Of a stretch of 25,283 nt of DNA, positions 20,181 to 25,220 are shown piece after piece (the stretch's first letter is position 1; every line of letters starts with the position of its first letter). The DNA is taken from the IMG/VR virus record IMGVR_UViG_2597490260_000006. One strand, written 5' to 3'. The notes under the pieces were generated by a model. The model ran no database searches and had not been told where the DNA came from. It saw nothing but the letters and a program-made list of their open reading frames with translations. The DNA comes from a virus (Duplodnaviria > Heunggongvirae > Uroviricota > Caudoviricetes). The position numbers and the translations under genes were made by a program.

Positions 20181-20210
20181 ATTTCCTCCGGAGAGCTTTA
20201 AACATGCATC

Positions 20211-20280
20211 GTGCGAACAACTTTAAGAAAACGCGTTCGATGTCGAACAAAAAACACTCAATTCGACATGCAAAAAACAA
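20211..20280. promoter_or_regulatory. Repeated TCGAAC-containing motifs upstream of the terminase small subunit gene (candidate cosB-type binding sites)
   Basis: Within 100 bp of the Nu1-like start: CGAACAA (20214-20220), near-palindrome GTTCGA-TG-TCGAAC (20235-20248), TCGAACAAAAAAC and TTCGACATGCAAAAAAC. Function as terminase-binding sites is inference. Confidence 0.4.
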
Positions 20281-20344
20281 ATAACCATTAATAATCAATA
20301 AGATGCAAAGATGATGGTGGCCAATAAAAATGCAAAAACTAGCC

Positions 20345-20370
20345 TTTTTCCGCGACGCTCCCGCCCCGTG
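20345..20370. other. Candidate cosN (cohesive end site)
   Basis: Late-strand sequence GGGGCGGGAGCGTCGCGG resembles the recalled lambda left end GGGCGGCGACCTCGCGG (shared GGGCGG and TCGCGG flanks), about 170 bp upstream of the Nu1-like start, comparable to the lambda spacing. Confidence 0.45.
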
Positions 20371-20817
20371 GCAGGCCCCCCCACCGGGAGGACCCGTCAG
20401 CCTGACAGCCATAACGAACGTCTGATACAGCCCTTACATGAATGGCATCGGGATAATCCAGAAAGGAATAGCATCGACCCACAAGAATCTGTGTGAGTGT
20501 CCTGTTTCTTCCACCCCCGCACAGGACTGGCGAGCATGAGGGACAACCCCGCGAACCATAACCGCGCTGATGACAGGACTGGCCCGGCTTGTATTGCTTC
20601 CAGCCTTCGCTTTTGTGGCTTTTGCAATAGCCTGACGGATCTGTGGTGGTATTGCGGTAGCCGCGAACACGGCAGGTTTTTGGGGTTCGTGGGGGCATAT
20701 GTACTCCAATGAAGAAGCCACCAACATAGCCTCCTCCATTCATCGTGAAACTATTTTCATCTACCCAGTAATGAATTCTTTGAAGAGTTGTGATCAATAC
20801 AACTCGCTAATGGAGAG

Positions 20818-20841
20818 GCTTGTCTCACACGTGAGACAAGC
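20818..20841. repeat. 24-bp near-perfect palindrome (11-bp inverted repeat, 2-bp centre)
   Basis: GCTTGTCTCAC-AC-GTGAGACAAGC read directly from the sequence; about 80 bp upstream of the small plus-strand ORF. Confidence 0.9.
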
Positions 20842-20920
20842 TTCCTGTTTGATTTACTGGACAGTATAGGAGGACAGAATGCCTTCCTCACTCGAATAAC
20901 ATCAATTAAGGAGGTTCAAC

Positions 20921-21043
20921 ATGTTTCATTCCACAAGTCATCAGGCTGTAATTATGGCAGCATCAGTTTGTGCCACAGACCTTTTCCGCTTCACTTTGAG
21001 CCTGATTCATTTCTACCTGACCGGCTCGCCTCTATCTTTCTAA
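20921..21043 (+). CDS. Small ORF (40 aa) with strong ribosome-binding site, antisense to the late transcript
   Basis: AAGGAGG 7 nt upstream of the ATG; encodes MFHSTSHQAVIMAASVCATDLFRFTLSLIHFYLTGSPLSF. Below the ORF track size cutoff. No family recognised; coding status is unproven. Confidence 0.4.
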   Translation: MFHSTSHQAVIMAASVCATDLFRFTLSLIHFYLTGSPLSF

Positions 21044-21162
21044 TCCCCGATTAATCCAAATTTCACTGCCATAATGCCGACATTCTCTGCCATTGTTGGC
21101 TCCGTTTATCCGTTAAAAGGGATATCAGTTAAGTTATCCCGTGCAGGGTATAAGCCATTATC

Positions 21163-21192
21163 AAAGCCACTCTGTAGGGAGTGGCTTTTGTA
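21163..21192 (+). terminator. Plus-strand intrinsic terminator-like hairpin
   Basis: AAAGCCACU-CUGUAGGG-AGUGGCUUU followed by UG; about 120 nt downstream of the small plus-strand ORF. Confidence 0.4.
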
Positions 21193-21397
21193 ATGGCAAT
21201 AAAAAGCCCCGCGAATGCGAGGCTAAATCCTGGTATTTGTAATGACTGGCTCTTATCTCAACGCAGCCCCTTACCGCGCGCAAGATGCTCAATATCAAGC
21301 ATCAGCAATGAGATGTTTAATCTGGATTCACTCCAGAAGTGATCACCATCCTGTCTACAGAGCCAGATGTGAAGGATGATGAGTAAAATTATCGCTA

Positions 21398-22395: not shown

Positions 22396-22458
22396 GGATA
22401 TTTATCAGGATTTATCGGTTTCTGCCCACGGACAGGTTTATCTGTTCCGGTCAGTGAC

Positions 22459-22809
22459 TTAAGGTTGTGATTCCGGAGGAGTCTTCAGAGAACCAGTAAT
22501 TCTTCCCGGTAGCTTTCCTTTGTAGGTTATCCATACATTCTGCGCCTCTAAAATTACGGGGCGCTTTTCCGGCGACTGCTCATCCCCTTCACATAACCCG
22601 GCAGCAACATCCAGGAAGACCTGTCTGATGCTCATTCTGGCTGCTGCCTCATAAAACTCCAGCGCGGCACCTTCAACACGGTCCAGCGAGATGTCCAGGT
22701 CAAAAATTTCACCGTCAAAGCGTTTTTTGTCCCGTAACGCTAAAGTTACCGTAACTTTATTCTCAAAATTGCGGATCCCTTTCACAATCAGTTCATAGTT
22801 TTGAGTCAT
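22459..22809 (-). CDS. Hypothetical protein located between holin and endolysin (possibly related to YdfR-like prophage proteins)
   Basis: 116 aa, tightly packed 4 nt after the holin stop. The family name is from memory of cryptic-prophage gene order and is not verified. Confidence 0.6.
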   Translation of the reverse strand: MTQNYELIVKGIRNFENKVTVTLALRDKKRFDGEIFDLDISLDRVEGAALEFYEAAARMSIRQVFLDVAAGLCEGDEQSPEKRPVILEAQNVWITYKGKLPGRITGSLKTPPESQP

Positions 22810-22813
22810 TGAA

Positions 22814-23029
22814 TTACTCTCCCCGTGCAGCCTTACGCTTGTCTTCTCTGATTTTGAAGTACAGATTTGTCAGATAAGTCAGGAAGCCCAGAACCAGACT
22901 CCCCAGTACACCAATCGCAGCCCACTGTGACGGACTGACCTGATCAAGCCACTGTAAAAACCAGTAGCCAGCACTGCCTGCGGAGGTGCCATAGGCGACA
23001 CCCGTTGTTAACTTATCCATGGATTTCAT
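22814..23029 (-). CDS. S: Class II holin (phage 21 S-type pinholin) with dual-start motif
   Basis: Start trimmed to [71 protein letters not shown] (71 aa), which closely matches the recalled phage 21 S protein. Two ATGs are separated by Lys-Ser (MKSM). GAGGTGGGG RBS upstream. Confidence 0.85.
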
Positions 23030-23068: not shown

Positions 23069-23090
23069 AAAAAGGCCACCTGACGTGGCC
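23069..23090 (-). terminator. Intrinsic terminator immediately downstream of the methyltransferase gene and upstream of the holin
   Basis: Minus strand reads GGCCAC-GUCAG-GUGGCC followed by TTTTTATTT, 7 nt after the methyltransferase stop. Confidence 0.55.
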
Positions 23091-24773: not shown

Positions 24774-25220
24774 ATGAATAAAATGACTGTACTATTACTT
24801 AGCGCAACTATCATTTCAGGTTGTACTTCTTCCGTACCATTGATAAAAAAAACTCAATCAGGAAAACCTGAGGGGGTTTATCAAAATACGACAAAAGATA
24901 AAGTCAAAGATGCCCTTGTGAATTACTGCAATAGTAGAGGGTTGATAATTTACAACGCTGATAACAGCAGTGTTATATGTGGTAAAGAACTGGAAGGCGG
25001 GTCTGCTGTTTTTGGACAAATGTTAATCGGCAATGCCTATTCAACAACCCCGGTATCAAAAGTCAGATTTACTATCGCTCAAGTTAATAACGATACAAAA
25101 GTGTGGGCCGATATGTGGATGGAAACTCAAATGGCAATGGGGCAAGTACAACAAATGGCTATAACAGACAACGCAAGCAAAAACACTATCCAACAACGTC
25201 TTGATGAATTAAAACCTTAA
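24774..25220 (+). CDS. Putative lipoprotein of unknown function (AT-rich accessory gene)
   Basis: 148 aa; signal peptide with lipobox (LLLSATIISGCTSS); gene is visibly AT-rich relative to the flanking phage genes; opposite orientation to the late operon. Confidence 0.75.
   Translation: MNKMTVLLLSATIISGCTSSVPLIKKTQSGKPEGVYQNTTKDKVKDALVNYCNSRGLIIYNADNSSVICGKELEGGSAVFGQMLIGNAYSTTPVSKVRFTIAQVNNDTKVWADMWMETQMAMGQVQQMAITDNASKNTIQQRLDELKP

Follow-up and report, generated by a model that had tools for sequence, protein, structure and literature searches.

The DNA analysed here is a stretch of 25,283 nucleotides (IMG/VR record IMGVR_UViG_2597490260_000006, Caudoviricetes), hereafter the window, and our subject is a gene for a 116-amino-acid (aa) protein in its lysis cassette, which we identify as ydfR. 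The genes in question all lie on the minus strand, in the order DNA methylase, holin, 116-aa open reading frame (ORF), lysozyme and Rz/Rz1. Beyond the cassette, downstream, follow the terminase, head and tail genes, gpJ, Lom and a tail fibre gene, which marks the window as late-region DNA of a lambda-like prophage. The cassette is 100% identical to that of E. coli MS21324, where the RefSeq labels read 'class II holin family protein', 'YdfR family protein', 'lysozyme' and 'lysis protein'. A preliminary description, made from the sequence alone, had drawn attention to the interval 22459-23029, which comprises ydfR and the holin, no more and no less, and had reported an extra, tightly packed ORF inserted between a holin of the phage 21 type (S21) and a lysozyme resembling the R21 endolysin of the signal-arrest-release (SAR) class. 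Both the coordinates and the profile matches confirm this arrangement, which comprises the following features.

23029-22814, minus strand: S21-type class II holin (pinholin type), 71 aa; PF04971, E=3e-35; PHROG holin
22817-22824, minus strand: Shine-Dalgarno-like motif GGGGAGAG in the final codons of the holin gene, 7 nt before the start of ydfR
ATG at 22809, stop at 22459, minus strand: 116-aa ORF (ydfR); PF07041 and PHROG 406/2091; starts 4 bases past the holin stop
22594-22809, minus strand: ydfR codons 1-72, the conserved DUF1327 core (PF07041, alignments, AlphaFold2 model, dN/dS)
22459-22593, minus strand: ydfR codons 73-116 and stop, a variable, recombining C-terminal tail module (CEGDEQSPEKRPVILEAQNVWITYKGKLPGRITGSLKTPPESQP) with a low-confidence model
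22396-22458, minus strand: 63-nt spacer from ydfR to the endolysin gene, without a clear Shine-Dalgarno motif
22395-21862, minus strand: GH24 lysozyme, predicted SAR endolysin, 177 aa; PF00959
21880-21398, minus strand: Rz i-spanin; PF03245, E=2.5e-28, PHROG 13; overlaps the 3' end of the endolysin gene, start codon uncertain
21645-21439, minus strand: Rz1 o-spanin lipoprotein, embedded in Rz; PF06085, E=3.8e-21, PHROG 3198

The components around the extra gene are thus recognisably those of a phage 21-type cassette, as had been noted before: the holin through PF04971, the lysozyme through PF00959 (with R21, 3HDE, at E=2e-16), Rz through PF03245 and Rz1 through PF06085.

Identity and prevalence of the 116-aa gene

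The 116-aa protein matches the Pfam profile PF07041 (DUF1327) with 142.4 bits (E=5.3e-42; gathering cut-off 25 bits), its residues 1-112 covering positions 1-92 of the 93 in the profile, and it matches PHROG 406 and 2091, both of unknown function, at E~1e-68. A search of NCBIfam with the protein returned no model, and a profile search of the PDB sequences for YdfR relatives found nothing. In RefSeq and in deposited phages the name in use is 'YdfR family protein', after the founding member, ydfR of the Qin prophage of E. coli K-12. Profile score, core residues and the location between holin and lysozyme all agree with membership, and we regard it as practically certain that the ORF is a genuine YdfR/DUF1327 gene. 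The profile search that the preliminary description had proposed as a check thus led to a family; its statement that no function is established still holds, but it had failed to recognise that the ORF belongs to a named and very common one.

A homologue is present in 4,348 of 5,426 complete E. coli genomes (~80%, by DNA search), with up to 10 copies per genome, and 101 phage records carry ydfR. The proposed check on conservation at this position also gave a clear answer: ydfR stands directly between an S21-type 71-aa holin and a 177-aa lysozyme in 88 of 88 Escherichia-type loci, the holin being visible in 87 of those fetched and the remaining locus beginning at ydfR. The same order of holin, ydfR and lysozyme occurs in K-12 Qin, H-19B, BP-4795, mEp460 and the converting phages for Shiga toxin (Stx) types Stx1a and Stx2c. 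Outside the Escherichia niche the family is tiny, with 319 proteins among 5.8 billion and 85 clusters at 50% identity among 1.84 billion representatives; in a set of one genome per species, YdfR was found only in Escherichia, Shigella and two evidently contaminated metagenome-assembled genomes (MAGs). Cassettes of the E. coli type, with holin, ydfR and lysozyme, also turn up in records labelled as Firmicutes, namely a Veillonella parvula MAG (L006), a Bacillota MAG (L008) and Enterococcus faecalis (P0068). These records are almost certainly the result of contamination or mis-binning.

Gene, family and position are therefore already known; they have been in the databases since the K-12 and H-19B sequences and are routinely named by annotation pipelines. 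A literature search found a single paper that names DUF1327, and that only in passing, and a search for essQ/rrrQ was uninformative. The presence of ydfR is an ordinary feature of such a lysis cassette, and it probably does not have a core lysis function. Still, ydfR is among the commonest prophage genes of E. coli, and in Stx phages it is presumably expressed along with the lysis genes.

Natural variants with and without ydfR

Natural variants bear most directly on whether ydfR is part of lysis. In the inducible phage VT2-Sakai, a holin of the same type and a lysozyme 90% identical to that of the window are directly adjacent, without ydfR, and cassettes of the DLP12 type (essD-rrrD) also lack the gene. 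The lysozyme is found at 80% identity or more in ~358 phage records, compared with 101 for YdfR, and ~70% of the records with this lysozyme lack ydfR. Since S and R are directly adjacent in VT2-Sakai and similar phages, ydfR is not needed for the holin-endolysin-spanin pathway; the natural variants show that it is dispensable for lysis in nature. Moreover, one and the same YdfR allele is paired with holins of 79-96% identity, with different endolysins and with very different spanins, and thus there is no sign of co-evolution with a lysis partner.

Protein anatomy, selection and mosaicism

Alignments define a conserved N-terminal core of ~72 residues, in which Y5, L7, V9, Y53, E54 and A57 are near-invariant and all present in the window protein. 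From a 26-sequence alignment, AlphaFold2 models the core with a predicted local distance difference test score (pLDDT) of 91 as a beta-beta-beta-alpha fold, that is three strands and one helix; the C-terminal tail is modelled at pLDDT <50. The core is acidic family-wide (isoelectric point 4.5-5.6). YdfR is a soluble protein without a membrane segment, the maximum Kyte-Doolittle hydropathy over 19 residues (KD19) being 1.03. We considered a membrane regulator of the antiholin or holin kind and ruled it out, given the lack of a transmembrane segment and of any match to a holin or antiholin family.

Over codons 1-72 the ratio of nonsynonymous to synonymous substitution rates (dN/dS) is ~0.25 against the K-12 and BP-4795 alleles. 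Because of this ratio, and because homologues extend to ~25-30% identity, the 116-aa ORF is a real gene and not a chance ORF; a spurious ORF is ruled out by the dN/dS value together with the conservation.

The tail tells a different story from the core. After the core, the window protein continues into the 116-aa form (ending ...KTPPESQP), and other alleles continue into a 114-aa form, the 103-aa form of K-12 with its unrelated tail, or a 104-aa form, while longer variants reach 176-183 aa with an added helical module, 206 aa, or 268-287 aa. Among the database alleles we counted at least six different C-terminal modules, over total lengths of 103 to 287 aa (P0014, P0038, P0105, P0127, P0132, P0154; L088 4001-4807), and in P0154 the modules stand in swapped order. 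DNA homology to K-12 stops after about codon 68 and returns 10 nt ahead of the lysozyme start, and in the comparison with BP-4795 the core is old (dS 1.74) and the tail young (dS 0.21). For both reasons we consider ydfR itself to be a recombination mosaic. Truncated, frameshifted or fused forms also exist in the databases.

A further variant is a split allele (L104 3501-4017; L105 1305-1788), in which a 72-aa core ORF is followed by an overlapping ORF of 96-107 aa that also matches DUF1327. The 72-aa core ORF of this allele occurs on at least 10 contigs, and the gene there follows a holin of another family, PF16080.

Junctions, translation and transcription

The junction between holin and ydfR in the window reads ...CGGGGAGAGTAATTCAATG, and that between holin and endolysin in VT2-Sakai reads ...CGGGGAGAGTAAGCTGATG. 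The two are identical in layout (...CGGGGAGAG, TAA, 4 nt and ATG), and in cassettes without ydfR the same Shine-Dalgarno motif and 4-nt spacing serve the endolysin start. It follows from this identity that ydfR stands exactly where the endolysin gene starts in ydfR-less cassettes and relies on the ribosome-binding site that serves the endolysin there. Judging by this layout, translation of ydfR is probably coupled to the holin stop. Neither ydfR nor the 63-nt spacer contains a promoter or terminator match, and ydfR is presumably transcribed together with S and R from the late promoter. YdfR would thus be made late, together and in step with the holin.

With ydfR holding the holin-coupled start, the ATG of the endolysin sits past a 63-nt spacer without a clear Shine-Dalgarno motif. 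The presence of ydfR may consequently change endolysin translation in cis. At the position of this spacer, other alleles carry a C-terminal YdfR extension, a small convergent ORF, or both.

Relatives outside lysis cassettes and convergent partners

Members of DUF1327 that consist of the core alone (72-94 aa, 25-40% identity) were found in Citrobacter, in Cronobacter and on metagenomic or unnamed-assembly contigs. Several of these genes lie inside siphovirus tail operons, after the tape measure gene, gpM, gpL or gpI (L091-L097, L100-L102), and the family is therefore not confined to lysis cassettes. In a Cronobacter prophage (L103), the DUF1327 gene lies upstream of the terminase genes, between them and the lysis genes, and has a glycosyltransferase-like gene as its neighbour. 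In another cassette of the E. coli type (L104/L105), it stands between the PF16080 holin and the 177-aa lysozyme.

Where DUF1327 is not alone, it is followed tail-to-tail by an ORF of 74-182 aa on the opposite strand, the two stops lying -53 to +41 nt apart. Such a convergent partner was present in every non-Escherichia context examined and in several variants of the E. coli cassette (L002, L003, L088), at the following loci.

Loci with a convergent partner: L090 4001-4576; L091 4001-4553; L094 4001-4486; L097 4001-4526; L100 3501-4006; L101 3501-4321
Loci with a convergent partner: L103 3501-4017; L104 3501-4225; L002 4001-4589; L003 3980-4766; L088 4001-5131

The partner ORFs belong to PHROGs of unknown function (10490, 2572, 2411 and 1853) and fall into at least five groups, among which no homology was detectable, nor was any to the C-terminal extension of the long YdfR forms. 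PADLOC gave no match for the YdfR variants or the partner ORFs, and simple scans found no promoters for the partners. A partner of the phrog_10490 type accompanies DUF1327 at four insertion sites (after the tape measure gene, after gpM, after gpI and in the Cronobacter prophage), which suggests that the two form a mobile convergent two-gene unit. The window allele is of the 'solo' form, with the 63-nt spacer only, and most E. coli copies are of this form. Searches of the deposited phages by tblastn, starting from two distant members, returned only E. coli alleles, and one scan with a single protein returned nothing. So far as the searched literature shows, neither the convergent-partner pattern nor the relatives in tail operons have been described; both lie outside the window.

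What YdfR may do

Functional data exist for the K-12 allele. A genomic two-hybrid screen that used RNase G as bait picked up codons 1-72 of K-12 ydfR three times (PMC13232886), and this fragment coincides precisely with the conserved core defined above. The signals of YdfR 1-72 were stronger with N-terminal constructs of RNase E than with RNase G, and Strep-tagged YdfR copurified both the chromosomally encoded Rne1-598 and large amounts of DNase-resistant nucleic acid (PMC13232886). The K-12 ydfR operon is silent under standard growth (PMC13232886). Elsewhere, the supplementary hit tables of the envelope-integrity screen of Paradis-Bleau list the ydfR mutant of the Keio collection, a phenotype that could stem from polarity on rrrQ, the lysozyme gene downstream, and an overexpression screen lists ydfR with a 3-fold rise in the minimum inhibitory concentration of streptomycin.

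We regard ydfR as an accessory passenger of the S21-type lysis cassette in lambdoid prophages of Escherichia. As to mechanism, the reading we tentatively prefer, and consider quite possible, is that the acidic beta3-alpha core, made late, would bind a cytoplasmic host factor, by homology with the K-12 protein (80% identity in the core). As target, the N-terminal, catalytic half of RNase E, RNA, or both would be the best candidate, and the sole one for which there are data. YdfR might then act as a late-expressed modulator or adaptor of RNA processing, and not as a component of a membrane-level lysis clock. A number of points count against this reading. The link with RNase E comes from one paper (2026) and from another allele; full-length T25-YdfR scored only with Rne1-597 and not with full-length Rne or shorter constructs (PMC13232886); the copurification was done from lysate without nuclease treatment and could be RNA-bridged (PMC13232886); and overexpression of YdfR brought few transcript changes and no growth defect (PMC13232886). 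Furthermore, RNA binding is not what one would first expect of an acidic domain, and two observations are compatible with a role related to lysis, namely the strict holin-adjacent position in all 88 Escherichia-type loci and the match of the Keio mutant in the envelope-integrity screen.

It was from the position of the gene that the preliminary description had derived a role in lysis timing or regulation, which is guilt by association. Spelled out, YdfR would be an acidic cytoplasmic regulator, made in step with the pinholin, that binds the basic cytoplasmic C-terminal tail of S21 or the precursor of the SAR endolysin and so delays or sharpens triggering, much as soluble factors of the antiholin type do. 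A soluble regulator of this kind would fit the fixed position, which is kept between the PF16080 holin and the same lysozyme in L104/L105 as well, the tight coupling of ydfR to the holin stop and the Keio listing; leaving R behind a 63-nt spacer without a clear Shine-Dalgarno motif could alone lower endolysin output, and soluble regulators encoded beside holins do exist, LydB of P1 being one (PMC9025707). However, the experimental data on the K-12 orthologue point to RNase E and RNA and not to lysis, and the Keio phenotype may be polar. The S/R pair works without ydfR in VT2-Sakai, YdfR alleles do not co-vary with holin alleles (79-96% identity), the protein has neither a transmembrane segment nor similarity to holins or antiholins, and core-only homologues occur in tail operons with no holin nearby. 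All in all, we think a timing role unlikely, and the step from position to function is not borne out; an effect of ydfR on lysis timing, if any, would bear on toxin release. The convergent partners open another view, in which YdfR would be the constant member of a mobile moron made up of two genes, and the late-transcribed DUF1327 gene would antagonise or regulate a partner expressed in the lysogen, through the protein or through antisense read-through. The copy in the window would then stand alone after the loss of its partner and keep perhaps only part of the original function. The occurrence of a convergent ORF of 74-182 aa in every non-Escherichia context and several E. coli variants favours this, as does the joint movement of the phrog_10490-type partner and DUF1327 to four sites, and the partners are recognised PHROG families. 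Yet those partners come from at least five or six mutually unrelated families, so the flank may simply be a hot spot for moron insertion; neither a partner promoter (by simple scans) nor a PADLOC match was found; and solo ydfR, the majority form in E. coli, is under purifying selection and must work without a partner. This view, too, we think unlikely.

Both the timing role and the two-gene origin are compatible with the RNase E/RNA mechanism. One could imagine all of them combined, the DUF1327 core being a late-made phage effector that docks on the catalytic half of RNase E (or acts as an RNA adaptor), travels as the constant member of a small convergent two-gene module into junctions of late operons and, in its lysis-cassette version, tunes decay or processing of the S-R message, and thereby indirectly lysis timing or the holin:endolysin ratio. 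YdfR would then be the first effector aimed at RNase E to be described in a temperate lambdoid phage; as a whole, such a chain would be speculative and decidedly improbable. At the other extreme, the ORF could be decaying, functionless, spurious or selfish filler between S and R, an idea to which its dispensability in nature, its hypervariable tail and the truncated, frameshifted or fused database forms lend some colour. The core, however, has a dN/dS of ~0.25, is kept to ~25-30% identity across genera and has a confidently predicted fold, and the gene, with its strong Shine-Dalgarno motif and its coupling to the holin, is present in ~80% of E. coli genomes, where it often occurs more than once. 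We therefore give this idea hardly any credence and return to a late-made protein with a cytoplasmic host target as the reading we prefer.

Neighbouring genes and other features of the window

The holin ORF begins ATG AAA TCC ATG (M-K-S-M), which provides a dual start at Met1 and Met4 with Lys2 in between, just as the preliminary description had it. It has two hydrophobic segments, of which the first is weak (window hydropathy 0.19 for the first transmembrane segment and 1.72 for the second). With its PF04971 match, its length of 71 aa, the two segments and the M-K-S-M start, the protein has the features of an S21-type pinholin. By homology to S21, it would be expected to have an antiholin form and to make small heptameric depolarising holes. 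A holin allele 79% identical to that of the window (L004 3703-3996; L016 2902-3213; L088 3727-3996) starts M-Y-Q-M-E-K and not M-K-S-M-D-K. This start is also dual, without the Lys2 that is the source of the extra positive charge of the S21 antiholin.

The lysozyme has homologues of solved structure in R21 (3HDE, E=2e-16) and RrrD (4ZPU). Its N-terminus is rich in Ala and Gly and hydrophobic (KD19 1.87, residues 9-27) and directly precedes the catalytic E-x8-D-x5-T, and we predict the 177-aa protein to be a SAR endolysin of the R21 type. According to a survey of Stx phages, almost every one is predicted to have a SAR endolysin and a pinholin, and the prediction includes this endolysin family (PMC8136144).

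Upstream of the holin, the window contains two further features.

24149-23097, minus strand: N6/N4 DNA methylase, 350 aa; PF01555; directly upstream of the holin
23074-23090, minus strand: terminator-like G+C-rich hairpin and T-run (GGCCACGTCAGGTGGCC TTTTTATTTC) between the methylase stop and the holin start; a pattern match only

A methyltransferase gene adjoins the cassette in only a subset of the related loci. The hairpin (23090-23074) lies inside the late transcription unit; if it acts as its pattern suggests, it is presumably read through by Q-modified polymerase.

On the other side, the ~1.2 kb that separates Rz from the gene for the small terminase subunit (20181-21397) is without a convincing gene. 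It holds a 152-aa ORF with a TTG start (20339-20797), whose PHROG matches are fragmentary, one of them being a piece of an HNH endonuclease family. The region may be a decayed HNH gene or a cos region. A 148-aa ORF on the plus strand, opposite to the late genes (24774-25220), has a lipoprotein-like N-terminus (…LLSATIISGC…), no Pfam match and a full-length match to PHROG 3152, of unknown function; it is probably a moron. Rfam and tRNA searches of the whole window gave no matches.

Comparison with known systems

The closest described counterpart is the Qin prophage of K-12, where essQ (annotated essD), ydfR, rrrQ and rzpQ follow one another (YdfR, P76160) with the same family and the same gene order as in the window. 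The holins of the two are 86% identical and the lysozymes 92%, while YdfR shows 80% identity over its first 74 residues. K-12 YdfR differs in its unrelated C-terminal tail and its length (103 compared with 116 aa); furthermore, its stop overlaps the rrrQ start, whereas the window has the 63-nt spacer, and a DUF2514 protein takes the place of the Rz/Rz1 pair of the window.

BP-4795 (S, ORF47 of the YdfR family, R, ant, Rz) shares the order S-ydfR-R and has an additional gene, ant, between R and Rz, and in H-19B an unannotated ORF between S and R belongs to the YdfR family. BP-4795, H-19B, the Stx1a and Stx2c phages and mEp460 are all inducible, plaque-forming lambdoid phages with S-ydfR-R, the YdfR alleles of the Stx phages being 63% identical to that of the window. 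The ydfR-less Stx2a phages of the VT2-Sakai/933W type and DLP12 essD-rrrD have the same holin family, the same or a related lysozyme and the same succession of S stop, 4 nt and ATG with its Shine-Dalgarno motif, but in these it is the endolysin itself that is coupled to the holin stop. Phage 21 itself reportedly has the gene order S-R-Rz, without ydfR.

Among lysis regulators, RIII of T4 is a small, soluble cytoplasmic protein without homology to YdfR. LydB of P1 is likewise a small cytoplasmic protein encoded beside a holin, as YdfR is (PMC9025707), again without homology to YdfR. A different likeness is to the small proteins with which some phages bind or modify RNase E, namely T4 Srd, T7 gp0.7 and Dip of phiKZ (PMC4980113). 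No sequence or structural homology links YdfR to any of these three, and the analogy could be a functional one: the half of RNase E to which Srd binds is the N-terminal, catalytic one (PMC4980113), as reported for K-12 YdfR (PMC13232886).

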